DNA of 55,909 nucleotides, from positions 1-55,909 of the IMG/VR virus record IMGVR_UViG_3300036781_000607. One strand, 5' to 3'. A program made the position numbers and the translations under genes. This document shows positions 3,366-36,344 of this stretch, piece after piece. Origin of the DNA: a virus. Position 1 is the first letter of the stretch. The number at the start of each line of letters is the position of its first letter. The notes beneath the pieces are model-generated. The model ran no database searches. It had not been told where the DNA came from and saw only the letters and a list, made by a program, of their open reading frames with translations.

Positions 3366-3826
3366 TCTGCCAGTTCACTTAATTGTTTATCGATCTCACC
3401 AGGTAATTCATCAATATGTTCATAAATGGCCGGGAAGAAATACGGATGAGCCTGCAAAGTACCTTCACCGTTCACAAAGAACTTTTTAGCCTCTGCCACC
3501 TGTTCTTCAGGTTTTCCGGCTAAAAATGTCTCGGCGTTCTGCCCGGTACCAAACTCTACATAAGCGGAAAGTTCATCTCCCGCATCAATGATCGTTTCTT
3601 CCCCGGTCTGAATAACACTGATCTTACTGCCTAAACTGCCCGGTGCCGCGCTTCTGGCCTGTTCGGCTATACGGTTAGCTACATCCAGTTCGGCTTTATT
3701 CACAGCCTCCCTTGCGCCTTTCAGTAAAGCGTTTAAGGGAGACAGCGAATCGTTCAAGTTTTTAATCACCTTTTTTATTTGTTGTACATAATAAGCGCCA
3801 GTAATGCACAGGCTGGTCAATATCAA
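3362..3826 (-). CDS. HK97 gp10-like tail-completion protein (start more likely the GTG at 3769)
   Basis: The AYVEFGTGQNAE motif is typical of the HK97 gp10 family. An in-frame GTG at 3769 overlaps the upstream stop (GTGATTAA). Confidence 0.55.
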   Translation of the reverse strand: MILTSLCITGAYYVQQIKKVIKNLNDSLSPLNALLKGAREAVNKAELDVANRIAEQARSAAPGSLGSKISVIQTGEETIIDAGDELSAYVEFGTGQNAETFLAGKPEEQVAEAKKFFVNGEGTLQAHPYFFPAIYEHIDELPGEIDKQLSELAE

Positions 3827-4160
3827 TGATCGCCCGCAAAGTATAACTAATCGCTACACCATTCACCAAAACCTCCACACGCATATTTTTTTTAGGCATC
3901 CAATTGCTACGGTAACGGATAGTGTAATAGGTATCACCATTCATCATCGTAGCCCCAGCTTCCTGTTCCAGTTGACTATAAATACTCCCCGGCCTGTTCT
4001 GTATATTTTGCTGAGAAGCACGGGTCTGTAAGGTCATTGTTTCGTTAAGCGGCGTTTGATCTCCAAAACTATTTGTAACCGATGATTGCTCAAAGAACTT
4101 AATATCAAACCGCAACCGGCCCGGATCTACAAAAGTCTTGTTCTCATACAAAATTTTCAT
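3762..4160 (-). CDS. Head-closure / head-tail adaptor protein (by position)
   Basis: 132-aa ORF between the gp6-like connector and the gp10-like gene. Confidence 0.45.
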   Translation of the reverse strand: MKILYENKTFVDPGRLRFDIKFFEQSSVTNSFGDQTPLNETMTLQTRASQQNIQNRPGSIYSQLEQEAGATMMNGDTYYTIRYRSNWMPKKNMRVEVLVNGVAISYTLRAIIDIDQPVHYWRLLCTTNKKGD

Positions 4161-4799: not shown

Positions 4800-6098
4800 T
4801 TAAGTCGTACGGGTAAAGTCAATCTTTTTGAATGACTCAGGATAGAAAGGAGTCATCGCGATACGGGCTTCAACCAGGAAGGTAACCAAGTTCTTGAAGA
4901 AGTTTTGGTCAGCTTCAGTAGAAGTACGCAGGGTAATACCCTTTTTCTGCCATAAAGCAACACCGCGATTATAATTACCTGCCAAACCTTCCAGTGCATT
5001 AAATACTGTATGGAAGTAGATCGGAATACCACCGATGGCCAACTGGCCGGCAGTAGTAGCCTGGATAGGATAATCATATTCCTGTACATCACCTTCTGAC
5101 TTATTAATTAAAGCACTCAGATAAGCTTCCGGTGAAATCCAGATCGCGTCGCCTGGACGCAGGTTGCGGCGGGTATTCGTAAGTGCCAAAGCCATTTTAT
5201 CCCAAACATTTGAATTAGGGCTTACGTCCTCTATACCGGCATAGCTGATAGCACTTGCTACTTCACTGAATAGACCTGGTAATTCGCCTGATGCTGAAAC
5301 GCCTTTAAATACCTGGCGAGTTTCTTCGTCTTTGTATGCCCAGGGTAATTCCTGTGCCAGCCATTCAGGTGCCCCTACGATATCATCCAAAAATTCTTCC
5401 TGCACGCTTACCCAACCTGCAATCTTAATTACATTCGCTGTCTTTGGAACAGGTGTGTAGTCAAATTGTGGTTTGGTTGCACCTGCAGCAACAGAAGCGA
5501 TCTTACCGTCTTTTTTAACAAACTGAACGTAGTTGATCGCATTATTAGCAGTAGGGTATACTGGTATAATATCGCGGGCCTGTACCTGTTCGTGCGGAAT
5601 ACTGATTGGCATTAACCATTGCTGCGCAGTAGTACCAGCAGGTACACCAATTACAGCGGGAGCTTTTTCAGCTAAAAGACCAGCGCCTTCTAACTCCACA
5701 TTGAAAGATTTTTTGGTTTTAAATTCCTGCAATTGCTTCATAGCTGCACCATCTTTTTCAGCAAAAGCTTTACTGATCTCAGCTTTCAACCCTGCCATTT
5801 CAGCATTTTTCTGTTGTGCAGAAATACGCTCCATTTTAGCTTCGGCAGCTTCACGCTTTTTATCAGTTTCATCGATCTTAACTGTCAATGCAGCAATTTC
5901 AACTTTCTGAGCTTCAATAGTTGTGGTTAATTCTGTTTTCACGGCTTCCACAGCGACACCTGCGGCAGTTTCAGCAGCTACTTTAGCGGCATCGGCAGTT
6001 TCCTTCATTTCATGGCTACGCTTTTCATCGGCGTATTTTTCCTTCTGATAATCAGTAAGAGCCTCGAATTGTGCTTTGGTTAAATATTCAAATTTCAT
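4800..6098 (-). CDS. Major capsid protein (HK97 fold) with an N-terminal coiled-coil, delta-like domain
   Basis: 432 aa. The first ~130 aa are Ala/Glu/Lys-rich and coiled-coil-like. It follows the protease gene and no separate scaffold gene is present. Confidence 0.8.
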   Translation of the reverse strand: MKFEYLTKAQFEALTDYQKEKYADEKRSHEMKETADAAKVAAETAAGVAVEAVKTELTTTIEAQKVEIAALTVKIDETDKKREAAEAKMERISAQQKNAEMAGLKAEISKAFAEKDGAAMKQLQEFKTKKSFNVELEGAGLLAEKAPAVIGVPAGTTAQQWLMPISIPHEQVQARDIIPVYPTANNAINYVQFVKKDGKIASVAAGATKPQFDYTPVPKTANVIKIAGWVSVQEEFLDDIVGAPEWLAQELPWAYKDEETRQVFKGVSASGELPGLFSEVASAISYAGIEDVSPNSNVWDKMALALTNTRRNLRPGDAIWISPEAYLSALINKSEGDVQEYDYPIQATTAGQLAIGGIPIYFHTVFNALEGLAGNYNRGVALWQKKGITLRTSTEADQNFFKNLVTFLVEARIAMTPFYPESFKKIDFTRTT

Positions 6099-15088: not shown

Positions 15089-15619
15089 ATGGAACTTACA
15101 CAAGAATTAGTTAGAGAGTTATTTAATTATCATGAGGACGGTTATTTGATCTGGAAAATAAAGCCCAGACAAAATGTAAATATTGGTGATATAGCCGGTC
15201 ATTTAACTATTGATAGAGGTGAAAAACGTCATTCAACTATGATTTATGGAAAAGGTTACCGTATATCAAGATTAATTTTCTTTTACCATACGGGTAAATG
15301 GCCTCAAACTATAGACCACATAAACCGCGTTACAACTGATAATAGAATACAAAATTTACGTGCTGCTACTCGGGCTGAAAATAGTCGAAACAGAAATCCA
15401 TCTAAAAATTCTTCCTCAAAATATCTCGGGGTAGGTTGGCATAAAGCTACTCAAAAATGGTGCGCTAAAATAAAAGCAGAAGGTAAGGATAAACATTTAG
15501 GAGTTTTTACATCTGAAATTACTGCTGCTTTAATTTATAATAAGTCAGCGGTAAAATATTTTGGTGAATTTGCAAACCTAAATATTATAATTCCTTCAAA
15601 TGCTCAAAATAACTTTTAG
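15089..15619 (+). CDS. HNH-AP2 homing endonuclease (paralog of 41054-41569)
   Basis: IDHINRVTTDNRIQNLRAATRAEN (HNH) and SKYLGVGWHKATQKWCAKI...LGVF...AALIYNKSAVKYFGEFANLN (AP2 domain). Confidence 0.8.
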   Translation: MELTQELVRELFNYHEDGYLIWKIKPRQNVNIGDIAGHLTIDRGEKRHSTMIYGKGYRISRLIFFYHTGKWPQTIDHINRVTTDNRIQNLRAATRAENSRNRNPSKNSSSKYLGVGWHKATQKWCAKIKAEGKDKHLGVFTSEITAALIYNKSAVKYFGEFANLNIIIPSNAQNNF

Positions 15620-17036
15620 GTTTTTCGGTTTGATTTTCACCTGCTACGGCCGCCGTTACGTGAGCTGCCCCCTGTTGTACAGTACCATCCATAATGCTCT
15701 GCATCGGAGTTTTAGTAATAGGTACCCATATCAAGTCAGCGCCTGGCTCTGTACTGCGACCATAACCGATTACTTCACGTTTTTCATTTAAAGAAAGGAA
15801 ATCGGCTTTTACCAGGTAATCAACGGTGCCTTTCACATCGTCCTGAAGTTCCGGCAAGCCCATAAAGTCTTTCTCAACTATGTAGGTGGCGTGGCTCGTG
15901 TTATACGGAGTACAGATAAAGGCTGTCATCGCTTTACTGAACTTACGGCAGTAAGGTGCGATTGCATTATAGGCAAGCTGTCGGTTCGCTACCGGCAGAT
16001 TGTTGTATGTCGCAGTATCTTGACTTCTGAACTGCAATGGTACGTGAAATCCCCGGTAAATATCATCTGCTTTCGCATCTGAGGCTTCCAGAGCTTTTAA
16101 ATCAGCTATCGGCAAACCTATTGCTGTCCATTTCAAGGGTATGGCCACCGGTACGATCCGGTCAAGGCGATCATTTGATGCATAAGCTGTTTTAAGAGAT
16201 TCCCCGGTCTGCTCCATTTGTGGTTCTCCCCAGTTATCTTCTTTATTCTCGGGATTAAGTAAACCTATTGAGCCCCCGTTTTTAACTTGTTTATCTACTT
16301 CACGGTCAACATTTTTTAATATGTCAATGGAGTACAGATAAGCTTTAAGTACTGGTAGCCCGTAACCCTGTGATCCTGCCGGATCATAACGGGGATTGAG
16401 TGTTTTTATATGTTTAATTTGATTGGCGGGAAACGGTCTGTTCTGAAGATAGTTAGTCATTTGATATTCAACAACCGGATCCATGAAATTCTGTCCTGCT
16501 TTAATAGTCATTTCGCTTGGTATGCACCATAGTTCGGACCATTTGCCTGCTTTCCGGTCAGCATCATTACCTGCATTTCCGTACAGATAAGTATTGCCGC
16601 GAAGCAGTAGTAAAGCACTTGCCAGTTCCCAGAGTGAGTCCCCATCTGTTTCCGGATTTGGGTTTTCCAGTAATTTTTCTATCGCAGGCATTGATACTTC
16701 TTCCAGTGCATTAACTTTTGCAATCAGCATTTTAGCTATATCGCCACCTTCACAAGCCTGTAAATATTTCTTATAATCTTTTTGGCTTTTAACGCGGTAC
16801 ACGATCCAGGGACAAGCAACGAATTTTTTAACGATCAGGTCAACACATTCATAAACTGCGCCTACCTGTTCAAAAGCTTTTTCGGAGTAGTTATAACCAT
16901 TCGGGTTGATCGTGACCTGAACATTATTGATCAGTTGGTTGAGGTTTTGCTGGAACAGGTTTTGGGTAATATGGGATACCTGTTGGTTGACCCTCTTATC
17001 AATTGTGCCTTTGAGCAGGTAATTCAATATTCCCAT
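15585..17036 (-). CDS. Portal protein (HK97 family-like)
   Basis: 483 aa, in the minus-strand packaging and head gene set. Confidence 0.8.
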   Translation of the reverse strand: MGILNYLLKGTIDKRVNQQVSHITQNLFQQNLNQLINNVQVTINPNGYNYSEKAFEQVGAVYECVDLIVKKFVACPWIVYRVKSQKDYKKYLQACEGGDIAKMLIAKVNALEEVSMPAIEKLLENPNPETDGDSLWELASALLLLRGNTYLYGNAGNDADRKAGKWSELWCIPSEMTIKAGQNFMDPVVEYQMTNYLQNRPFPANQIKHIKTLNPRYDPAGSQGYGLPVLKAYLYSIDILKNVDREVDKQVKNGGSIGLLNPENKEDNWGEPQMEQTGESLKTAYASNDRLDRIVPVAIPLKWTAIGLPIADLKALEASDAKADDIYRGFHVPLQFRSQDTATYNNLPVANRQLAYNAIAPYCRKFSKAMTAFICTPYNTSHATYIVEKDFMGLPELQDDVKGTVDYLVKADFLSLNEKREVIGYGRSTEPGADLIWVPITKTPMQSIMDGTVQQGAAHVTAAVAGENQTEKPKSYFEHLKEL

Positions 17037-22079: not shown

Positions 22080-24212
22080 ATGGAAACCAAAATAGACCTT
22101 TATCCAGACGCCTGGACAACTACCGGTGCCGAAAAAATTACAGTAAGTACCTTTTTAGATAACATTCGTTCTGGTTATTGGCAGGATCAGGTTCTACCCA
22201 TCCGCGCCGCTGTTCAGAAAAACCTGTCAAAGAAACAAATTGATAAGTTAAAAACTTCCATCCCGGCTGCCGCCGCTTCCGGCACTTTTAAAGTTCGTAA
22301 CTCGTCCCCCGACAACCTGGAAAAACATTCCGGTTATCTCGCCATAGATATTGACCATATAAGCAACATAAGCGCCGTAAAGGAACAATTAATGCAGGAC
22401 AGCCTTTTCCACGCCATTTTCATTTCATGCTCAGGACGGGGTATTTGCGGGCTTGTACGGATAAATCCAAAAGCTCATATTGAATCGTTCAATTTTATGT
22501 CCGAGCATATGTTCCTTAAATATGGTCTGAACATCGATGAAAAATGCAAGGATGTTTCCCGGCTGAGGTTCGTTTCATATGACCCGGACTTATACGTTAA
22601 CCAGGACTCACAGATTGCACCAATTAAACCCACACCCAAAAAAGAAAAACAATCACCAAAAAAATATCTCTACACAGATGAAGATTTCCAGCGCATACTG
22701 GACGACATAAAAACCGCTGAACTGGACCTGACCGGCAATTACCAGGACTGGATATACTGTGGGTTCTCCCTGGTTGATAAATTTGGGGAAGAAGGTCGCG
22801 ACCCGTTCCATACGATCAGTATGTTCCATCCAGACTATGACCCGGACAAAGTAGACTATAAATATGATCACCTTTTAAAATCAAAAACCGGCGACCACAC
22901 AATAGACTGGTTCTACCACATAGTTGAAAAGAACGGCCTCACGGCTTACGGTAAAGGCACCGCCGATTTTATACAGCAGGAACTGGCGGAGAAACGGGCC
23001 TATGACGCAGGCCTGAGAGACGAACGCCCTCTTACTTATGCTACGCTTGGTATTATAGACATACCGGCCACCGACCCAATTATCCAGGTGAAGAACTTTG
23101 TACACAAAGCCTACAAGATTCGCAAGAACGAGATGACCGCCGCGCTGGAAGTGAACGGTGAAATGCTGGATGACGAACTGCTGAACACTATTTATATTCT
23201 CTGCCGGTCAGTCATTGAAAAGATTAACGGGCGCGATATTATCTATCACGTACTGGACAGCCGGTTTACCCCGCGTTATCACCTGGTAAAAGATATGATG
23301 GCTAAATATGACGCGGAACCACCGGAACAATCACGTGGTCATATAAAGGCGCTGGTTGACACTTTGGAGACAGACACAGTTTATGCCTACGCTTTCATAA
23401 AGAAATGGCTGGTGGCCCTGATCGCAAGCGCCTACGGCCAGCACAGCGTTCTTGAGCTGATCCTGCAGGGGCCGCAGAACTGTGGCAAGACAGAATGGTT
23501 CCGCAGGCTATTGCCCGTCATCCTGCTACAATACTATGCAGAGAGTAAAATGGATGAGGGTAAAGACGACTTGATCCTGATGAGCAAAAAGCTGATTATC
23601 ATGGATGACGAGCTCAGCGGTAAGTCCAAACAGGAAGAACGTAAAATGAAATCGATCTCATCCAAACAAACCCTTGACCTGCGGGTACCGTTTGGGCGCA
23701 CATCCTCCACACTTAACCGGATCGCTATGCTTGCAGGCACAGCGAACGATGACGAGATCGTGGATGACCCGACCGGTAATCGGCGCCGTATCGTGATCGG
23801 CATCAAGTCAGTGAACTTTGAGGCTTATAATGCAATCGATAAAGAGTTGCTCCTTTATGAGTGCTATCTCGAATACATGGCCGGGTTCAATTATCAGATG
23901 ACCACTGAGGATATATTGTTGCTGGAAAGTGGCGGGCAGCAGTTTAAAAAATCCGTGGTTGAGGAAGAACTGCTCACTAAGTACTTTTGCCTTCCGGCAG
24001 ACTTACCGGAGGCAGAGATCACTGAAATGTCCAGCAGCGAAGTGTTTGACTATATCCGGCCCATGACCAGGCACAATATCAACAGTAATACCCTGGGCAA
24101 GTATTTAAAAAAGCTTGGCTTTGAGCAGAAGCACCGGAAGAACGGTAAAACAACGATCAGGAAATATTTACTGGTGAAAATAAAAGAGCTTACATTAAAT
24201 GATTTAGTATGA
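22080..24212 (+). CDS. Primase-helicase (BT4734/VirE N-terminal primase-like domain plus VirE/D5-like P-loop NTPase)
   Basis: HSGYLAIDIDHI...CSGRGICGLVRI...SRLRFVSYDPDLYVN, and Walker A GPQNCGKT with Walker B LIIMDDE. Confidence 0.75.
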   Translation: METKIDLYPDAWTTTGAEKITVSTFLDNIRSGYWQDQVLPIRAAVQKNLSKKQIDKLKTSIPAAAASGTFKVRNSSPDNLEKHSGYLAIDIDHISNISAVKEQLMQDSLFHAIFISCSGRGICGLVRINPKAHIESFNFMSEHMFLKYGLNIDEKCKDVSRLRFVSYDPDLYVNQDSQIAPIKPTPKKEKQSPKKYLYTDEDFQRILDDIKTAELDLTGNYQDWIYCGFSLVDKFGEEGRDPFHTISMFHPDYDPDKVDYKYDHLLKSKTGDHTIDWFYHIVEKNGLTAYGKGTADFIQQELAEKRAYDAGLRDERPLTYATLGIIDIPATDPIIQVKNFVHKAYKIRKNEMTAALEVNGEMLDDELLNTIYILCRSVIEKINGRDIIYHVLDSRFTPRYHLVKDMMAKYDAEPPEQSRGHIKALVDTLETDTVYAYAFIKKWLVALIASAYGQHSVLELILQGPQNCGKTEWFRRLLPVILLQYYAESKMDEGKDDLILMSKKLIIMDDELSGKSKQEERKMKSISSKQTLDLRVPFGRTSSTLNRIAMLAGTANDDEIVDDPTGNRRRIVIGIKSVNFEAYNAIDKELLLYECYLEYMAGFNYQMTTEDILLLESGGQQFKKSVVEEELLTKYFCLPADLPEAEITEMSSSEVFDYIRPMTRHNINSNTLGKYLKKLGFEQKHRKNGKTTIRKYLLVKIKELTLNDLV

Positions 24213-26133: not shown

Positions 26134-26526
26134 ATGAATTTATTATTTTGGAAACACAAAAAAGAAGCGCATGTAATTAAAAAGCAGTGTTACGACAAAT
26201 TACCGTCAACCTTGCAGAATCACTACCATCCAAGTGATGAACAACCTACGCATCACTATGACGATGACAGCGGACTGATCACGGGTATAGTTATTGGCGA
26301 AATGCTGGCCGATAACAGCACGGCACCTGATAGCTCACCAGCAGATAATAGTCCTTCATTTGATGGATTTGGCGGCGGAGATTTTGGTGGAGGTGGCTCA
26401 TCCGACAGTTTTGATACCCCGGATTCAGGCGGATCAAGCTATGATAGTGGTAGCTCTTATGACAGTGGTAGCTCTTATGACAGTGGTAGCTCTTATGACA
26501 GTGGTAGTAGTTCATCTGATTATTAA
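26134..26526 (+). CDS. Low-complexity Gly/Ser/Asp-rich protein with SSYDSG tandem repeats
   Basis: 130 aa, ...GGGDFGGGGSSDSFDTPDSGGSSYDSGSSYDSGSSYDSGSSYDSGSSSSDY. Confidence 0.5.
   Translation: MNLLFWKHKKEAHVIKKQCYDKLPSTLQNHYHPSDEQPTHHYDDDSGLITGIVIGEMLADNSTAPDSSPADNSPSFDGFGGGDFGGGGSSDSFDTPDSGGSSYDSGSSYDSGSSYDSGSSYDSGSSSSDY
26434..26505 (+). repeat. Four tandem 18-bp repeats encoding SSYDSG
   Basis: The unit agctcttatgacagtggt occurs three times exactly, preceded by a diverged copy. Confidence 0.85.
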
Positions 26527-26670: not shown

Positions 26671-26715
26671 GCGTAACGCCAGCAACGGTTTACGCTTTTG
26701 GTAGTAAAAAGAAAA
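26671..26715 (+). promoter_or_regulatory. Hairpin plus diverged leader unit 4
   Basis: GCGTAA-cgCCagcaacGGt-TTACGC at 26671-26695, same architecture as unit 1 with a compensatory C:G to T:A pair. It is followed by TTTTGGTAGTAAAAAG and the ATG at 26721. Confidence 0.55.
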
Positions 26716-26720
26716 CAATT

Positions 26721-27158
26721 ATGAAAATAACAGTTGAAGTAAATGGTAAGCCAGTAGAAATTGAGCTTACAAAAGATCAGGTTGCTTTCGTTAAAAAGCA
26801 ACCACAAAAGATCACTGATCGGATTAAAACTTTTCAGGATGTACTTGATTACATTGGCTTGGAAAGGGCTAATGAATTTTATAAATCTTGTGAAAATTGT
26901 TCAGATCACAATATTGCTGACAAGCAGGTAGAACTGATTTGCGAAGTTTTAAACGAAGGTTGGATAGCAAATCCTTTTAATACAAAGCAATACAAATATT
27001 ATCCTTATTTCCAGGTAAGCGGTTCTGCCTTTGTGTTCCACAACTGCGCTTGGTACCGGATTACGATTGTCGGCTCGCGGCTTTGCTACAAAAATGCTGA
27101 ACTGGCTACATACGCAGGAAAACAATTCGTAGACATTTACACTAAACTATTATCATAA
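26721..27158 (+). CDS. DGR variable protein 1 (145 aa), paralog of 27158-27574
   Basis: Contains VR1. The two share MK..(I/V).VNGK.VEIELT.DQ...VKK...KITDRIKT, NEGW, QYKY.PYF, GSAFVF and IVGSRLC. Confidence 0.8.
   Translation: MKITVEVNGKPVEIELTKDQVAFVKKQPQKITDRIKTFQDVLDYIGLERANEFYKSCENCSDHNIADKQVELICEVLNEGWIANPFNTKQYKYYPYFQVSGSAFVFHNCAWYRITIVGSRLCYKNAELATYAGKQFVDIYTKLLS
27021..27086 (+). repeat. DGR variable repeat VR1 (one codon shorter than the TR)
   Basis: Aligns to TR 27585-27653 with 11 substitutions, all at TR adenines, and one 3-nt deletion. It diverges from the TR after ...ctttgc. Confidence 0.75.
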
Positions 27159-27574
27159 TGAAACTTCCTATCCAGGTAAACGGAAAAACCGTTGAAATTG
27201 AGCTCACTAACGATCAGATCGAAATAGTGAAAAAAGCAAATCAGAAAATTACTGATCGTATTAAAACTGAAGAAGATATTTGGCGCGAGGCAGGAGTCAC
27301 TAAAAGTTTTTGGGGGAAACTACATGTGTTTGATCAGTTAGCTTTGTTAGGTTCTATTTTGAATGAAGGGTGGAAACCTGATTGGAATGATTCAAGTCAG
27401 TACAAGTATGAACCATACTTTAAATGGAACGGTTCTGCCTTTGTGTTCGACAGCTACATCGCTTGGAGCCAGCATACGATTGTCGGCTCGCGGCTTTGCT
27501 TTAAAAGTAGCGACTTAGCTATTTATACAGGAAAACAGTTTATCGATTTATATAATAAAATATTGAGTTTGTAA
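27158..27574 (+). CDS. DGR variable protein 2 (138 aa)
   Basis: Contains VR2, which ends 22 codons before the C-terminus. Confidence 0.85.
   Translation: MKLPIQVNGKTVEIELTNDQIEIVKKANQKITDRIKTEEDIWREAGVTKSFWGKLHVFDQLALLGSILNEGWKPDWNDSSQYKYEPYFKWNGSAFVFDSYIAWSQHTIVGSRLCFKSSDLAIYTGKQFIDLYNKILSL
27431..27506 (+). repeat. DGR variable repeat VR2
   Basis: 76 nt, collinear with the TR. There are 11 mismatches, every one at an A in the TR: AAC>GAC, AAC>AGC, AAC>ATC, GAA>GCT, AAC>AGC, AAT>CAT, AAT>ATT, AGC>GGC, CAG>CGG, CTA>CTT. Confidence 0.9.
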
Positions 27575-27584
27575 TTACCGGCGC

Positions 27585-27660
27585 GGTTCTGCCTTTGTGT
27601 TCAACAACTACAACGAATGGAACCAGAATACGAATGTCAGCTCGCAGCTATGCTTTAAAA
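27585..27660 (+). repeat. DGR template repeat (TR)
   Basis: Non-coding copy between target 2 and the RT. It is rich in AAY codons when read in the VR frame (4 AAC, 2 AAT). Confidence 0.9.
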
Positions 27661-27752
27661 CCTTATTGCAAACTTTACCAGCAAGGTAGAAAAATAAAAA
27701 TTTAAAAGGGTTGTGGTAGTCTCCGGACGAAGCAAACCTTATAAAAAGCAAA

Positions 27753-28715
27753 ATGAAAAGATTAGGCAATCTATATACGGAGATTTGTAGCAAGGATAAC
27801 ATCATTCTGGCTGATCAGAGAGCGCGTAAGCGAAAAGCTAAACAAAGAACTATTAAATTATTTGATGTAAACAGAGAGGCTAATTTAGCTTCTATTGTTA
27901 ACATTTTATCTGAGCAAACTTACAAAGTCTCTGGGTATGAAACTTTCAAAACTTTTGAAGGTAAAGAACGTCTGATATTTAAATTGCCTTATACTGATCG
28001 TGTAGTTCAACATGCTATAATGAATGTATTGGAACCGATCTTTAGAAATTACTTTATAGCCCATACTTATAGTTGTATAAAAGGCCGCGGTATTCACAGG
28101 GCAAAAAATGATGTGGAGAAAGCTTTGAAACAAGGCTTTATGTATTGCCTGAAACTTGATGTAGTTAAATTTTATCCATCAGTCGATCACGAGATTTTGA
28201 AACAGCTTTTAAGAACAAAATTCAAGGATCAGAAATTATTAGGTTTACTGGATACGATCATTGAATCAGCACCAGGTTTACCAATAGGCAACTATCTGAG
28301 TCAGCCTTTAGCTAATTTTTATCTGACACCTTTTGACCGCTGGATAAAAGCAAAGAAATTTCCCTATTTCAGGTATGCAGACGACATGGTCATTTTATCA
28401 TCGAATAAGGCTGAGCTTCAAACTTTACTGCATGAAATTATAGGTTATCTGAAAGATAATTTAAAGCTTGATATCAAAGGAAATTACCAGGTATTTCCTG
28501 TAGCGGCCAGAGGTATTGATTTTGTAGGCTACCGGATTTTTCATACGCACGTAAAACTGCGTAAGTCAATTAAGCTCCGTTATATTAAAACCATGTTGAA
28601 TAATCCGTCAGATACTTCAAAAGCAGCGTATAACGGATGGTTAAAACATTGTGATTCAAAAAACTTAAAAAATAAATATGACACAAGTAATATTTACACT
28701 GATCATCATAGCTGA
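27753..28715 (+). CDS. DGR-type reverse transcriptase
   Basis: N-terminus MKRLGNLYTEICSKDNIILADQRARKRK, the IGNYLSQ motif characteristic of DGR RTs, and catalytic RYADDMVIL. Confidence 0.9.
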   Translation: MKRLGNLYTEICSKDNIILADQRARKRKAKQRTIKLFDVNREANLASIVNILSEQTYKVSGYETFKTFEGKERLIFKLPYTDRVVQHAIMNVLEPIFRNYFIAHTYSCIKGRGIHRAKNDVEKALKQGFMYCLKLDVVKFYPSVDHEILKQLLRTKFKDQKLLGLLDTIIESAPGLPIGNYLSQPLANFYLTPFDRWIKAKKFPYFRYADDMVILSSNKAELQTLLHEIIGYLKDNLKLDIKGNYQVFPVAARGIDFVGYRIFHTHVKLRKSIKLRYIKTMLNNPSDTSKAAYNGWLKHCDSKNLKNKYDTSNIYTDHHS

Positions 28716-28893: not shown

Positions 28894-29232
28894 GTGACTG
28901 ATAATCAGAAAAAGTTAAGGGCCACTACCACGCATTGCAGGTATTGTGGCCAGGCGTTCCACGGCAAAGTAACGGCAACGTTTGACCACTTCTACCCACT
29001 GGACAAACAAGGCCCGAACAGGATGTGGAACAGGTTCGTAGTCTGCAGGGCGTGTAACCAGGACAAAGGCAATAAAATGCCGCAGGAGTTTATAGTGCAC
29101 CTGCTGCATAAGATAAAGCATAACAAGGATATTAACACTAAATATTTCACCCGCGCCAGTAAAACGATAGCTAATATGCTGATCATTGAAGAACAAATCT
29201 GGCCATTATTTGAAGGAAAGGATATATTATGA
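28894..29232 (+). CDS. HNH endonuclease
   Basis: GTG start. CRYCGQ...FDHFYPLDKQGPN..WNRFVVCRACNQDKGNKMP. Confidence 0.8.
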   Translation: MTDNQKKLRATTTHCRYCGQAFHGKVTATFDHFYPLDKQGPNRMWNRFVVCRACNQDKGNKMPQEFIVHLLHKIKHNKDINTKYFTRASKTIANMLIIEEQIWPLFEGKDIL

Positions 29233-32115: not shown

Positions 32116-33465
32116 ATGATCTACAAGCCTCATTCATACCAATCCTACGCCATACAGCATTTACTTGATAATCCTGCTGCGGCCCTGTGGCTTTCTGTAG
32201 GACTTGGCAAGAGTTCTATTACGTTAACTGCTATTGAATGGCTGTTAGGTACGTTGGCGATTGATAAAGTCCTTATTGTCGCGCCAAAGCGTGTTGTAGC
32301 ACATACTTGGCCATCGGAACTGAAGAAGTGGTCGCATCTTTCCCATTTAAAAATATCTGTCATCCAGGGCAATGAAAAGCAGCGGATACAGGCGCTTTAC
32401 ACCAAAGCTGATATTTATGCTGTGAGCCGTGATTTGATTGCATGGTTGGTTCACTATATAGGTAAGAACAAAGGTAAGTGGCCCTTTGACATGCTGGTCG
32501 TAGACGAAAGTTCAAATTACAAGAACCCATCAGCTCAACGCTTCAAAGCGTTGAAAAGAATTTTACCTTATTGCCGGCGCACAGTTATACTTTCCGGGAC
32601 TCCAAGCCCAAACGGTCTTTTAGGGTTATGGTCCCAAATCTACCTTTTAGATAAAGGGGAACGCCTGGGGCATACGTATGGAGCGTATAAAGATGAATAT
32701 TTTATCGCTGGGGCAAAACAGGGGCACATTGTTTTTAATTATTATCCAAAGAAAGATGCTGAGCAAAAGATATTTGAAAAAATTTCTGATATCGCACTCA
32801 GCATGGATAAAAAAGATCATTTACTCGATCTGCCGCCGAGATATGATATTTACCAGGAAGTTGAACTTCAAAGCTATAAACGTTATGAAGAATTTAAGAA
32901 AAACGAGGTACTTATTTTAAAAGACGGGTTTGAATTGACTCCGGTTAATGCCGCCAGTATGTACGGAAAATTGCTCCAATACTGTAATGGAGCGGTATAT
33001 CGTGGTGATGGCTCATACGAAATTGTTGATAACTCAAAATTGGAAGAACTTCAGGAAGATGTAGAGGCGTTAGACTCCGATCCGGTATTTATCGTGTACC
33101 AGTTTCAATCCGATTATGAACGGTTTTTAAAGGCCTTTCCTGGTATTGTAAAAGTACAAAGTGATCAACAAATTGACGATTGGAATGCTGGTCTTATACC
33201 AATTGCCTGTTCACAGATACAGTCTTTAGCCTACGGGGTTAATTTGCAAGAAAGCGGGAATCATCTTTATCATTTTGGTTTAGGATGGGATTTGGAACTT
33301 TATCAGCAATTCTGTGGCCGCCTGGACAGGATGGGTAAAAAGAAAGCTACGATCAATAAACATTTTGTTGCAAAGGGCTCGATTGAGCAACTTGTTATAG
33401 AACGATTAGCTGGGAAGTATGATACGCAGGAAAAGCTGATGCAGGCGCTTAAAAGATTTCTATAA
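32116..33465 (+). CDS. SNF2-family helicase
   Basis: LGKSS (Walker A-like), MLVVDESSNYKNP (DExx), LSGTPSPNG. Confidence 0.8.
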   Translation: MIYKPHSYQSYAIQHLLDNPAAALWLSVGLGKSSITLTAIEWLLGTLAIDKVLIVAPKRVVAHTWPSELKKWSHLSHLKISVIQGNEKQRIQALYTKADIYAVSRDLIAWLVHYIGKNKGKWPFDMLVVDESSNYKNPSAQRFKALKRILPYCRRTVILSGTPSPNGLLGLWSQIYLLDKGERLGHTYGAYKDEYFIAGAKQGHIVFNYYPKKDAEQKIFEKISDIALSMDKKDHLLDLPPRYDIYQEVELQSYKRYEEFKKNEVLILKDGFELTPVNAASMYGKLLQYCNGAVYRGDGSYEIVDNSKLEELQEDVEALDSDPVFIVYQFQSDYERFLKAFPGIVKVQSDQQIDDWNAGLIPIACSQIQSLAYGVNLQESGNHLYHFGLGWDLELYQQFCGRLDRMGKKKATINKHFVAKGSIEQLVIERLAGKYDTQEKLMQALKRFL

Positions 33466-34236
33466 AATATCGTACATATTTTCAACAGCGTCAATATACT
33501 CCTGAGATTCTTTTACATATTCTTCGCTGATATCACAGCCTAAATAATTTCTGCCATTTCTTTTTGCTTCAGCACACGTAGTTCCGGATCCGGAAAAAGG
33601 ATCAAAAACAAGGTCCCCAATATTTGACCAGGTATTAATATGATCAGCGGCTAATTGTTCTGGAAATACAGCAGGATGATTTTTACCGCTATTTCCACAA
33701 GCATAGTAAAATATATTACCAGGTATTTTTTCTTCTTTTACAGTTACTTCTTCGGCCCGGCGCCTGAATGATCCTTCTTTAAAACCATACCCTTTATGGC
33801 TTAAATTTTGCTTCATACCGCCAGTTCTGCTTTTTACCAGTAAAGGATTGAATGTAGAGATATTCCCTTTGACAAAGACAAACATATATTCAAATTCCTG
33901 CTCATAACGTTTATGCGTTTGTGGAATAAAATTCAATTTTCCATAAATCATGGTATCGTGTAGTTTGAAACCTAAACTTATAAAAAATAAAGCTTGCCTG
34001 AAAGAATCTCCAGACTCAGAACCGTTCACAGTATGATCGCCCACAACCCAAACTAATATGCCACTGTTTTGAGTTATACGATATAGATTTGTTGCAGTGC
34101 GTTCAAAATCAAAAGTAAAGCCATTATACTTTCTTAATTTTTTACCGTAAGGAGGTGAAGAAACTGTTAATTTTATATGATTAGCCGGAAGGCTGTCCAT
34201 AAAATAATTACATTCTGAGCAAACTATTTTATTCAT
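33460..34236 (-). CDS. DNA methyltransferase (N6-adenine or N4-cytosine, SPPY type)
   Basis: LTVSSPPYGKK and LVFDPFSGSGTTCAEAKRNGRNYLGCDISEEY. Confidence 0.8.
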   Translation of the reverse strand: MNKIVCSECNYFMDSLPANHIKLTVSSPPYGKKLRKYNGFTFDFERTATNLYRITQNSGILVWVVGDHTVNGSESGDSFRQALFFISLGFKLHDTMIYGKLNFIPQTHKRYEQEFEYMFVFVKGNISTFNPLLVKSRTGGMKQNLSHKGYGFKEGSFRRRAEEVTVKEEKIPGNIFYYACGNSGKNHPAVFPEQLAADHINTWSNIGDLVFDPFSGSGTTCAEAKRNGRNYLGCDISEEYVKESQEYIDAVENMYDIL

Positions 34237-36344
34237 TATTTTTTGTAATAATCTCCTACGAATCCGTCAGCAAAAATAGGCCAGGTTTTTGCCCATTCAG
34301 GAACATCTAACATTAATTCCTTAATTGTGTCAAAGCTTACAGAGCCTTTTTTTACTTCCAGGACACACTCATCATGCACCGAGAGTACAACAGGGTATCC
34401 GGCGTTTTCAATATTCATAATAGAGTGCATTAAAAGATCACGGCTGATACCCTGAGTAAAATTTTCCACCAGGCGCGGGCCAAATGTTTCAATTATACCC
34501 CATTGTTTTGTAGTTTGATTCTGCCCCCAGAAGCATACGGTTTCACGGGTATTAGGTTTAGTACCATCATCTTTTAAGTTGAGTTTTTTAAGATACCAGT
34601 AATACTCATCCATGGTACCGCGCCTTACTTCTCCAACTTTTACATTTTTTATCTCGATCACATATTCTTTGGTTTCTTCATCTAATTTCATTGAAGGAAT
34701 GTGGGCAATATAAAATTTTCGTAAATGTGCTTTATGGTAAACAATACACCTGCCCGAGGGGAATTTCATTAGCAAATTGCCATTCTTCATGCCGAAAGCT
34801 ATACCATGTTTAACCGGTGAAAACTCCCCTGTCCTAATCGCGTTCTTTGCGGCCGCATCCGTATCCCACCACAATTGAACAATATTGGCATTGGCCTCCC
34901 GGAAAGCTTTGATCAGCCCCGGCATTTCTTTTACAGGGATTCGCTTCTTTGGATCTTCGATGGTTTCGTTCATGCGCTCCATGGCTAAATGACTGCCCCC
35001 ATATTGCCCTAATAAAAACGATATTTTTGCTTTTTGCCGCTGGTCTTTCGTAACTTCCTCGAAAGGAACTTTGAACATATTAACAGCCGTCTTTTTATAT
35101 ACGTCCTCTTTGTTGGCAAAAGCTTTGATTAGCCAGGTTTCATCTGCGAGGCAACTGAGAGTTACAGCCTCCACGCTCGTGAAGTCTAAAACAATAAATT
35201 CATTGCCTTCATCTGCTATAAAAGTAGGTCTTAATAACTGTGATAACACATCAGATAAATCGGGGAATATCATGTGTAAAGAATCTATATCTCTACGTTT
35301 TACTACTTCCCTGGTATCATCCAGCATAGGTTCAAACCATTCTTCGATTCGCCTGAAATTTTGACCGTTAAAAATTCTGCCGGCTTCTCGACCGGTCCTG
35401 TTAGCACCGTAGTATTGAGTAAGGCCGCGCACCCTGAAATCTTCCCCGGCGGCAGCTTTCATTGAGGCATATTTTTTGATACTGGACCGGGACATTAACT
35501 GCCTGATACGTAAAATTCGTTTTGCGGGGCCTTCGTCTATTTCATTAAGCAACTTACTGACAGTTTGTTTATTCAGATTATCAAGAGCATCTTCAGTTTC
35601 TAATTCCAGCCATTTTTTAAGTTGCGTAGGCGAATTTACATTTTTAAGACCTGTTAAATTAACAGCTTCTTCAGTAAGTTCAGCCCGGTAAACCCGGTCC
35701 AGTTCCATAGCCGAATCGATCAAATCAATATCAACTTTAATTCCGCGTTCATTTTTAAGTTCATTCAGACACCAGATTTGATGCTCTTTCTTCGGAATAC
35801 TATACCATTCGCAAGCTTTATGAACAGCCTGTTCTACCTCGACGTCAATTTTATTATAATTTTTAAATTGCTCCCATTTCTCAGGGTCATGTTCAGGCAA
35901 GTTACGGGTACGCATACCATTAACCGCTGTTGGCTTACAGGGAATGCAAAAATACCTGATCAGCGACTTGCCGATAGGGTCTTTTTTTTCAATCAGTCCA
36001 AGGGCTTTACTGGCGTCATCCAGGCTTAAAGGCAATCCGCACATAGCGGCCCTGACCAAACTACACTCCCATTGCTCCGCAGGTGAATAGATATCTAATA
36101 CAGTGTTAAGATATCCGCGTTCGTAGGGAGCATTATAAGCACGTTTAATATAGTTCGGATCAGTGAATGCTGATAAAAGCCACGCAGGTATTTTTTCTTT
36201 GGTTAAATCCAGTACAATAACAGGACCATAATCGAGTGAATACGCGAGCAGGATTATCTCACCGGACTCAGCACGTTTATAAACACCATACTTGATGTCA
36301 ACGGGGCTAAAATCTTCTATATCGAGGGATAAGATGTGTTTCAT
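34236..36344 (-). CDS. Family A DNA polymerase with 3'-5' exonuclease domain
   Basis: LSLDIEDFS (Exo I), the KISFLLGQYGG region, VLSVHDECVLEV (motif C). Confidence 0.85.
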   Translation of the reverse strand: MKHILSLDIEDFSPVDIKYGVYKRAESGEIILLAYSLDYGPVIVLDLTKEKIPAWLLSAFTDPNYIKRAYNAPYERGYLNTVLDIYSPAEQWECSLVRAAMCGLPLSLDDASKALGLIEKKDPIGKSLIRYFCIPCKPTAVNGMRTRNLPEHDPEKWEQFKNYNKIDVEVEQAVHKACEWYSIPKKEHQIWCLNELKNERGIKVDIDLIDSAMELDRVYRAELTEEAVNLTGLKNVNSPTQLKKWLELETEDALDNLNKQTVSKLLNEIDEGPAKRILRIRQLMSRSSIKKYASMKAAAGEDFRVRGLTQYYGANRTGREAGRIFNGQNFRRIEEWFEPMLDDTREVVKRRDIDSLHMIFPDLSDVLSQLLRPTFIADEGNEFIVLDFTSVEAVTLSCLADETWLIKAFANKEDVYKKTAVNMFKVPFEEVTKDQRQKAKISFLLGQYGGSHLAMERMNETIEDPKKRIPVKEMPGLIKAFREANANIVQLWWDTDAAAKNAIRTGEFSPVKHGIAFGMKNGNLLMKFPSGRCIVYHKAHLRKFYIAHIPSMKLDEETKEYVIEIKNVKVGEVRRGTMDEYYWYLKKLNLKDDGTKPNTRETVCFWGQNQTTKQWGIIETFGPRLVENFTQGISRDLLMHSIMNIENAGYPVVLSVHDECVLEVKKGSVSFDTIKELMLDVPEWAKTWPIFADGFVGDYYKK

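Follow-up and report, generated by a model that had tools for sequence, protein, structure and literature searches.

Here we describe a diversity-generating retroelement (DGR) in a phage genome, IMG/VR virus record IMGVR_UViG_3300036781_000607, analysed from position 1 to 55,909 (this whole stretch of 55,909 nucleotides (nt) is called the window). It contains two small tandem target genes, T1 and T2, each with a variable repeat (VR) matched to a single template repeat (TR), followed by a reverse transcriptase (RT) gene. We consider it very probable that T1 and T2 represent the tandem pair typical of Bacteroidota-phage DGRs that lack Avd and use VRs of the 'CLec3' class, and that they are rewritten by the mechanism modelled below. 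Direct observations carry this reading: the repeats, their adenine bias, the boundary of copying, the complementarity between the TR–RT spacer and the initiation of mutagenic homing (IMH) element of the VRs, and the pattern of divergence between related genomes. Judged from its sequence, the element appears to be intact and recently active, and typical of a lineage that is common, catalogued and barely described. A constant block at the 3′ end of both VRs is explained by known DGR rules.

T1 (26,721–27,158; 145 amino acids) and T2 (27,158–27,574; 138 amino acids) lie on the plus strand, as do the other elements of the cassette, and the start of T2 overlaps the stop codon of T1. They are paralogues with 52% identity, in agreement with a first-pass annotation of this DNA, which had paired the two open reading frames (ORFs) and assigned a VR to each. 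A repeat search recovered a 77-nt unit in three copies (27,017–27,093, 27,430–27,506 and 27,584–27,660), the third of which is non-coding, precedes the RT gene and constitutes the TR (24 adenines in 77 nt). VR2 (27,430–27,506; 77 nt) aligns with the TR ungapped, and VR1 (27,020–27,087) aligns with a 3-nt deletion. Each VR carries 11 substitutions, and in both cases 11 of 11 fall at TR adenines, which by chance would be expected at ~0.31^11, or ~3e-6, for each VR. Both VRs therefore form with the TR the adenine-mismatched pair typical of DGRs, and the annotation was right that substitutions occur only at TR adenines and that one TR serves two diversified targets.

The codon loss previously ascribed to VR1 is present as the 3-nt gap, but its assignment to AAC is not unique: a lost TAC can be placed equally well, and all mismatches stay at adenines both ways. 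The gap lies opposite an AAC/TAC run of the TR and was seen in the window alone among the relatives compared. Similarity of VR1 to the TR ends after TGCT (27,087), whereas that of VR2 runs through TGCTTTAAAA (27,506), 6–7 nt beyond the VR1 end, which matches the 7-nt difference first recorded; likewise, the ~22 residues said to follow the VR correspond to ~22 codons in both genes. The two VRs have the same outcome at two hypervariable codons, GAA to GCT (27,046–27,048 and 27,460–27,462) and AAT to ATT (27,066–27,068 and 27,479–27,481), and differ at the codons between. Such agreement could have arisen by chance, with odds of roughly 1 in 10 to 1 in 20 at each codon, through selection common to both genes, or by exchange of sequence from one VR to the other.

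A YxDD catalytic box and an [I/L/V]GxxxSQ motif mark the RTs of DGRs. The adjacent RT (27,753–28,715; 320 amino acids) is of this type: its ORF is full length, the motifs YADD and IGNYLSQ are intact in the translation, and it matches RVT_1 (E = 2.3e-18) and phrog_1423 (E = 2e-105). No Avd-like family was found among the neighbouring genes or the ten small basic ORFs of the window, and no accessory protein of another known type was found there either. Avd occurs in ~74% of DGRs; ~26% do without avd, and 29% (Architecture A) are without any accessory gene (PMC5758913). In 58 of 65 related viral loci an ORF of ~98 amino acids (phrog_19665, with no Pfam family; 5,470–5,766 in L003) stands directly after the RT stop codon and is a possible accessory factor for these Avd-less DGRs. 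A homologue of this ORF is absent from the window (tblastn E above 0.07).

The 24-nt block ACGATTGTCGGCTCGCGGCTTTGC is the same in VR1 and VR2 and differs from the TR at four adenines (27,634, 27,639, 27,646 and 27,650), all four as originally described. For comparison we used loci from viral contigs (L001–L080) and bacterial genomes (L085–L163), and aligned 129 unique VR/TR pairs (61 unique TRs) into a transfer profile, numbered from the first base of a Gly codon (position 0 is 27,639 in the TR, 27,485 in VR2 and 27,072 in VR1). The block reads GTC GGC TCN CGC CTT TGC in ~190 VRs and GTC AGC TCN CAC CTA TGC in their TRs, and recurs over ~120 loci with 35–50% protein identity; the bacterial genome loci have the same pattern, with GTC GGN TCN CGC CTT TGC in the VRs against GTC AGN TCN CAC CTA TGC in the TRs.

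The profile resolves a copied tract and its end. Between roughly −56 and +5, the VRs keep the TR base at 95–100% wherever it is not an adenine, and the synonymous sites +2 and +5 vary among loci, yet TR and VR agree within each locus (129 of 129). TR adenines in this tract give rise to all four bases in the VRs (at −12, A30, C26, G46 and T27). Copying ends around the Arg codon, and the bases that follow are nearly constant in the VRs. At +8 the VRs have C (124) or G (5) and the TRs C49, A8, G2 and T2; TRs with A or T still pair with a VR C, with the exception of L116, in which the VR keeps the TR's A. The VR base is C in 129 of 129 at +9, where 10 of 61 TRs are non-C; T in 127 of 129 at +11, where the TRs have A37, G10, T12 and C2; and C in 127 of 129 at +14, where the TR is not always C. 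Where a TR has CGA as its Arg codon, the VRs have CGC, without a mix.

Several of the mismatches 3′ of the copied tract are at non-adenine TR bases, and +11 is synonymous; because the VR bases are fixed all the same, they are not copies of the TR and are conserved as DNA. VR bases fixed as DNA opposite a divergent TR are what defines an IMH with its IMH*, elements that are predictable for nearly all DGRs (PMC5758913). In the window, the IMH-like segment of VR1 is GGCTTTGCT (27,079–27,087), delimited by the transfer profile and by spacer complementarity, and that of VR2 is GGCTTTGCTTT (27,492–27,502), the wobble positions of which are fixed over ~129 VRs. The IMH* of the TR, AGCTATGCTTT (27,646–27,656), has A at 27,646 and 27,650, where the VRs have G and T. 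Taken over the 129 VR/TR pairs, the genome loci and the complementarity to the spacer, the VRs thus have an IMH at their 3′ end and the TRs an IMH* that differs from it, which marks the 3′ limit of transfer.

The first-pass suggestion that the block is a fixed IMH facing an IMH* is largely borne out, most clearly at 27,650, but the block is composite. Site 27,634 (position −5; AAT to ATT) belongs to an ordinary hypervariable codon, which encodes Ile in both VRs and 15 different residues among homologues. Site 27,639 (position 0; AGC to GGC) lies inside the copied tract in a conserved Gly codon (the base is A in 58 of 61 TRs and G in 127 of 129 VRs), and 27,646 (position +7; CAG to CGG) is situated on the copy boundary or close to it, in a conserved Arg codon (A in 51 of 61 TRs and G in 128 of 129 VRs). 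Site 27,650 (position +11; CTA to CTT) is synonymous and is a fixed difference between IMH and IMH*, the VR having T whatever the TR base. Because position 0 is flanked by covarying copied sites, adenine mutagenesis would have to restore its G in the VRs, and selection for Gly would then retain it. In the window's clade, 4 of 11 VRs retain the TR's AGC (Ser) and none has C or T at position 0, an alternation of AGC and GGC that fits copying with selection for a small residue.

Most TRs have AGC (Ser) and CAC or CAG (His or Gln) where the VRs nearly always have GGC (Gly) and CGN (Arg), so most homing events are expected to produce defective proteins, at the Gly site and, where it is copied, at the Arg site. 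A possible reason for the adenines is that adenine is the sole TR base that both differs from the VR base and can be converted back to it; a possible rule would be that IMH*/IMH differences within the copied tract must be adenines. A similar contrast between TR and VR was seen at 5′ sites in related loci, for example at position −48.

The spacer between TR and RT (27,661–27,752) is a conserved structured RNA according to RNAalifold on an alignment of 46 loci, in which 10 of the 14 predicted pairs have two-sided changes that keep pairing. It comprises a hairpin, P1 (~27,673–27,690), of the type CTTGCC–loop–GGCAA, and helices P2 and P3 (~27,708–27,739), which together surround invariant GGTA and GAA. 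The structure emerged from the alignment alone; a single-sequence fold of TR plus spacer was not significant (z = −0.9), and Rfam gave no family match across the whole window. Single-sequence folds and a pair-frequency scan of 128 VR flanks found no conserved hairpin or cruciform 3′ of the VRs. We dropped a DNA hairpin like that of phage BPP-1 as a candidate at this site, given just weak TTTGC/GCAAA pairing, little above other diagonals.

Just 5′ of the RT start codon, the same 46-locus alignment has a near-invariant AAAGCAAAGG(C), the reverse complement of which, (G)CCTTTGCTTT, is the VR sequence from +7/+8 to +17. Among 102 unique VRs, contiguous complementarity between spacer and VR averages 9.1 nt (mode 10, maximum 13) and starts at +7 to +10, versus a mean of 4.0 nt between spacer and TR in the same set, with adenines interrupting. 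In L044 the two sides covary, a VR G at +8 being matched by a spacer C. The corresponding segment in the window, AAAGCAAA (27,745–27,752), abuts the RT ATG, is the reverse complement of the VR IMH core and is a putative RNA primer and guide. It is complementary over 8 nt to TTTGCTTT of VR2 (27,495–27,502), over 6 nt to TTTGCT of VR1 (27,082–27,087) and over 6 nt to TATGCTTT of the TR, after an A–A mismatch at 27,650. VR1 has just 6 contiguous complementary nt because TAC replaces TTT at 27,087–27,089. Should the site of priming track the duplex end, the window's clade would begin copying at about +9, which would account for the G at +8 that the window's TR and VRs share (CAG, CGG), most relatives having C.

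In BPP-1, seven potential base pairs between spacer and TR lie beside Sp A56, the nucleotide from which synthesis is primed, and TR G117, the base that is copied first (PMC6182149). The RNA primer pairs more with the IMH than with the IMH*, and this pairing has been proposed to direct integration (Naorem et al., PMC5703328). By analogy with BPP-1, priming, guiding and binding could proceed in the window's element along the same lines. TR and spacer would be transcribed together and the spacer would fold, with AAAGCAAA pairing with the TR 3′ end. The RT would prime cDNA beside this duplex and copy the TR leftwards, misincorporating opposite adenines. The RNA–cDNA hybrid would then locate a VR, as the spacer segment would pair perfectly with the VR 3′ end TTTGCTTT and imperfectly with the TR's own 3′ end TATGCTTT, so that the VRs would be recipients and the TR a protected donor.

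We hypothesize that the 3′ block would then have three layers: an ordinary variable codon, by chance Ile in both VRs; two TR adenines in or at the edge of the copied tract, in the Gly and Arg codons, where only VRs regaining G would persist; and the IMH proper, which would never be copied and would be constant at the DNA level. VR1 has the same IMH core and 5′ homology, and the codon it lacks is an indel opposite the TR's AAC/TAC run.

The first-pass annotation proposed comparing the VRs across related phages, where invariance would indicate a dead DGR. Both VRs vary exactly at TR-adenine positions. Between the window and the closest relative for which DNA was compared (L081; 87.7% identity over the whole cassette), 22 of 34 adenine-templated sites (65%) differ over both VRs, compared with 4 of 81 other VR sites (5%), 15% of sites in the rest of T1 and T2, and 5% of the TR (95% identity). 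The two TRs also differ at a non-adenine site (GCC against GCT), and VR1 and VR2 of each genome match their own TR. Because this change is mirrored in both, VR1 and VR2 have both been rewritten since the split from L081. Relatives have AAC at a codon that is GAA in the window TR, and in VR1 and VR2 of the window this codon begins with G. T1 and T2 each have their own orthologues in relatives; the VR1 orthologues in L081, L083 and L084 differ mutually, and from the window's VR1, at adenine-templated sites. Across homologues, the hypervariable columns coincide with TR-adenine codons. Natural diversification is thus evident from comparison between genomes, and the element has been active, including on VR1.

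T2 has 148 homologues of 130–190 amino acids, none of which has a Pfam domain. A profile search of 1.84 billion representatives returned 5,055 family clusters (50% identity) at E up to 1e-3, with members nearly all of 130–165 amino acids. The best 150 of the 5,055 are nearly all stand-alone proteins of 146–226 amino acids, and ~17 are proteins of 247–353 amino acids with two copies; none of these 150 is a domain on a long fibre-like protein. In the two-copy proteins (P0121–P0131 and similar) there are two matched stretches, apparent fusions of the tandem pair, which suggests that the two paralogues work together. The family is carried by phages and prophages of Bacteroidota, and the genome records are almost all from this phylum (Pedobacter, Mucilaginibacter, Chitinophagaceae, Flavobacterium, Elizabethkingia, Tenacibaculum and Bacteroides), with some from Ignavibacteria and Chlorobi. 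Cultured phages provided no close relative; the one megablast match was to a fragment of a methyltransferase from Cellulophaga phages, and a tblastn search with T2 was empty.

A scan for repeats with adenine-only mismatches found a TR/VR system in ~73 of 80 viral loci, and the order VR–VR–TR occurs in 31 of the 55 genome loci that carry the block. There are two target copies in 119 of 165 loci, three in 19 and four in 4, from which two small tandem targets appear to be the family norm. An RT 49–91% identical to that of the window is present in the flank of 71 of 80 viral loci and 53 of 79 genome loci; about one-third of genome loci have no RT within 3.5 kb. L083 (2,229–3,417; ENA ERZ27279683, a 71.8-kb contig) and L084 have three tandem paralogues of 111, 146 and 138 amino acids, and L083 has no RT or TR within 3 kb, though its VRs look diversified.

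Members of the family have been listed before. Roux 2021 Supplementary Data 8, which reproduces the reference targets of Wu 2018, includes t120 (two tandem small targets of 156 and 123 amino acids) and t121 (one of 131 amino acids), both with VR class CLec3. The family profile aligns with t121 at 99.6% and with t120 at 99.3% probability (hhalign). These targets belong to the same protein family and have the same VR motif, and t120 is also tandem; they are ~30% identical to the window proteins, and they are listed rather than described, with nothing published on their fold, genomic setting or IMH. The profile also aligns with the VR of t116, a CLec3 target of 477 amino acids (hhalign 84%, E = 7e-6), over 24 columns ending in VGSRLCF, and an alignable VR with this ending places the window proteins in the CLec3 class. 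The long CLec3 targets of Bacteroides-type prophages, such as t116, share with the window proteins the last ~24 VR residues including VGSRLCF, and therefore probably the same IMH logic. They differ in that the rest of the protein is unrelated and the VR lies at the extreme C terminus.

Each feature that had seemed odd at first pass has a precedent. The description of T1 and T2 as unusually small for DGR targets does not hold, as proteins of 130–165 amino acids are the norm in this family and the published reference set already contains small tandem targets. Two targets are present in 13% of DGRs, and indels opposite AAC occur in DGR copying (PMC5758913).

AlphaFold2 models built from 107–108 homologues have a mean predicted local distance difference test (pLDDT) score of 83.9 for T1 and 83.7 for T2, and a predicted template modelling (pTM) score of 0.70 for both. 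Each model starts with a β-hairpin at the N terminus, continues through five helices and a long stretch without regular structure, and ends in two helices at the C terminus; the models are mostly helical overall and contain a loop or hairpin of 30–50 residues. The variable residues of T2 (98–108) are placed on a short predicted hairpin with a conserved Trp at the turn, and the equivalent segment of T1 is coil. Foldseek with both models found no solved structure in the PDB at E below 1 (template modelling score at most 0.18), and matched just uncharacterised phage proteins among predicted viral structures. A profile search of PDB sequences with the family gave no match, and T1 and T2 have no Pfam or NCBIfam family, just phrog_11581 (function not known). 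A resemblance of the N terminus to ZapA was too weak to be accepted as an identity and counts only as a lead (Pfam ZapA matched 5 of 107 members, best E = 5e-4; Foldseek E above 1).

The models have neither a C-type-lectin fold of the Mtd, TvpA or TaqVP type (with the caveat that the VR part has pLDDT 50–61) nor an Ig-like β-sandwich, being mainly helical and without an Ig-like Foldseek match. The first-pass view that the VR is not C-type-lectin-like is therefore correct for the models, which match no C-type-lectin or Ig structure, and incorrect for the VR itself, which ends in the CLec3 motif VGSRLCF. On present evidence, T1 and T2 share the CLec3 VR motif but not the C-type-lectin fold, and they are probably binding modules in which a helical scaffold presents the variable residues on a short hairpin or loop.

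The window is a phage genome in which the DGR cassette lies within a replication block, between a VapE-type primase (22,080–24,212) and genes for a SNF2 helicase (32,116–33,465) and a family A DNA polymerase (PolA; 34,236–36,344). It is far from the genes for the capsid (4,800–6,098), head completion protein (3,762–4,160) and portal (15,585–17,036), and from large tail-like genes. L164 has a like placement, between DNA methylase and HNH/primase genes of a phage with a CI-type repressor. Neither a location in a tail module nor fusion to a fibre domain was found in the window, in L164 or in the best 150 of the 5,055 profile matches. Placement in the replication block argues against a tail-fibre role for T1 and T2, without excluding one.

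A NUDIX gene and an HNH endonuclease gene adjoin the cassette, the latter at 28,894–29,232, 180 nt 3′ of the RT; an HNH gene also lies 5′ of the targets in L083, and an HNH_3 gene lies two genes past the RT in L164. Just 5′ of T1 is an ORF (26,134–26,526; 130 amino acids) encoding an acidic, Ser/Gly/Asp-rich protein without a family match, in which an 18-nt tandem repeat (26,440–26,507; 3.8 copies, 98% identity) encodes SYDSGS repeats. An imperfect inverted repeat (26,672–26,700; AGCGTAA...TTACGCT, then TTTT) lies just 5′ of the T1 start and, having a long loop, is not listed in the consensus scan; it may be a terminator that isolates T1–T2–TR–RT as one transcription unit.

The constancy of the 3′ block could have other origins. 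If T1 and T2 had been duplicated after a single diversification and their 3′ part had not been rewritten since, as the first-pass annotation had allowed, VR1 and VR2 would be identical across the block, including the synonymous change of CTA to CTT, and the GCT and ATT common to both at two hypervariable codons would be accommodated as well. However, the same VR block and TR version recur in ~190 VRs over ~120 loci at 35–50% protein identity, the duplication is old (T1 and T2 are 52% identical and each has its own orthologues), and the mirrored GCC/GCT change dates the rewriting of both VRs to after the L081 split; we regard such inheritance as extremely improbable. It is also very unlikely that there is no cis-acting element, the whole block being copied and mutagenised with protein selection alone restoring Ile, Gly, Arg and Leu. 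Two of the four sites are indeed non-synonymous, in invariant Gly and Arg codons, and the alternation of GGC and AGC in the window's clade (AGC in 4 of 11 VRs) is what such selection would leave, but it would not fix T at the synonymous +11 in 127 of 129 VRs, even where the TR has G or C, nor the wobble positions +8 and +14; nor would it turn CGA in TRs into CGC, without a mix, or make the fixed bases complementary to a conserved spacer segment. Finally, the DGR might be a relic of past diversification, defunct at least on VR1, the length of which is unlike that of the TR. Consistent with this are the 3-nt deletion of VR1 and its 6 nt of spacer complementarity, the missing Avd, the lack of the 98-amino-acid ORF found behind the RT in 58 of 65 related viral loci, and L083, with three paralogues and no RT nearby. 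Against this stand a full-length RT with catalytic and DGR-specific motifs, an intact TR, spacer helices and IMH, and the match of both VRs to the window's TR at non-adenine sites; copying by DGRs is known to leave indels opposite AAC, and 26% of DGRs have no avd (PMC5758913). We therefore judge a relic to be quite unlikely.

A different alternative concerns what the proteins do. T1 and T2 as miniature receptor-binding virion parts with a C-type-lectin fold, used for host attachment, would agree with the 'CLec3' motif VGSRLCF at the end of the VR, with the 24-column profile alignment to the 477-amino-acid CLec3 target (hhalign 84%, E = 7e-6) and with the placement of small family members in CLec3 by published surveys. 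We doubt this role, because the models (pLDDT 84, pTM 0.70) are a β-hairpin plus helices with no Foldseek match at E below 1, the PDB sequence profile search was empty, the cassette lies between primase and SNF2/PolA far from structural genes (L164 is alike), and the best 150 of the 5,055 clusters are stand-alone or two-copy proteins of 146–353 amino acids, none on a fibre-like protein. As a tentative and rather unlikely proposal, T1 and T2 could instead form a cytoplasmic hypervariable binding module of two subunits that is not a C-type lectin and not part of the virion. Under this proposal, temperate Bacteroidota phages would express it together with their replication genes, and it could, for example, keep up with a host factor that varies, such as a defence protein.

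Several observations weigh against our preferred reading, that of an Avd-less DGR rewriting a tandem pair under guidance by its spacer. Control comparisons with the rest of the spacer reach 5–8 nt of complementarity, and 10–11 nt in two loci; the signal is clear across the family, but as the margin at a single locus is moderate, the argument rests on family-wide conservation. In the window the complementarity is just 8 nt (VR2) and 6 nt (VR1), the extending GG(C) of most relatives being missing. Without Avd, the BPP-1 mechanism, which requires it, may not transfer in detail. Keeping A at the Gly codon in 58 of 61 TRs despite G in the VRs is costly and unexplained by the model. The variable region of both protein models, the putative binding surface, has low confidence (pLDDT 50–61). 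Finally, only comparisons between genomes speak for current activity.

The element resembles that of BPP-1, the prototype (mtd–avd–TR–brt), in its adenine-specific transfer from TR to VR and in the location of the VR near the 3′ end of the target gene. Further likenesses are the GC-rich start of the IMH, the non-identical IMH* in the TR and a copy boundary inside the element, as well as a spacer segment that pairs beside the cDNA start and does so better with the IMH than with the IMH* (PMC6182149, PMC5703328). In contrast to BPP-1, the window's DGR has no Avd and has two targets rather than one, and these are proteins of 138–145 amino acids with no predicted C-type-lectin fold, as opposed to a tail-fibre tip. 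No conserved GC-rich hairpin was found 3′ of the IMH in the window's family, and the IMH/IMH* differences in the window sit at TR adenines. Because ~22 codons follow the VR, the IMH is under coding constraint here, unlike that of BPP-1.

As an Avd-less lineage, this family appears to offer independent comparative support for the choice of VR by guidance from an RNA primer. The complementarity of IMH and spacer, conserved and covarying over ~100 VRs, makes the RNA-guided integration model testable without Avd. The occurrence of Ser and of His or Gln in the TRs where Gly and Arg are needed implies a cost of homing that calls for explanation. Given that the family has no Pfam model or structural relative and lies amid replication genes, the assumption that phage DGRs diversify receptor binding may fail here.

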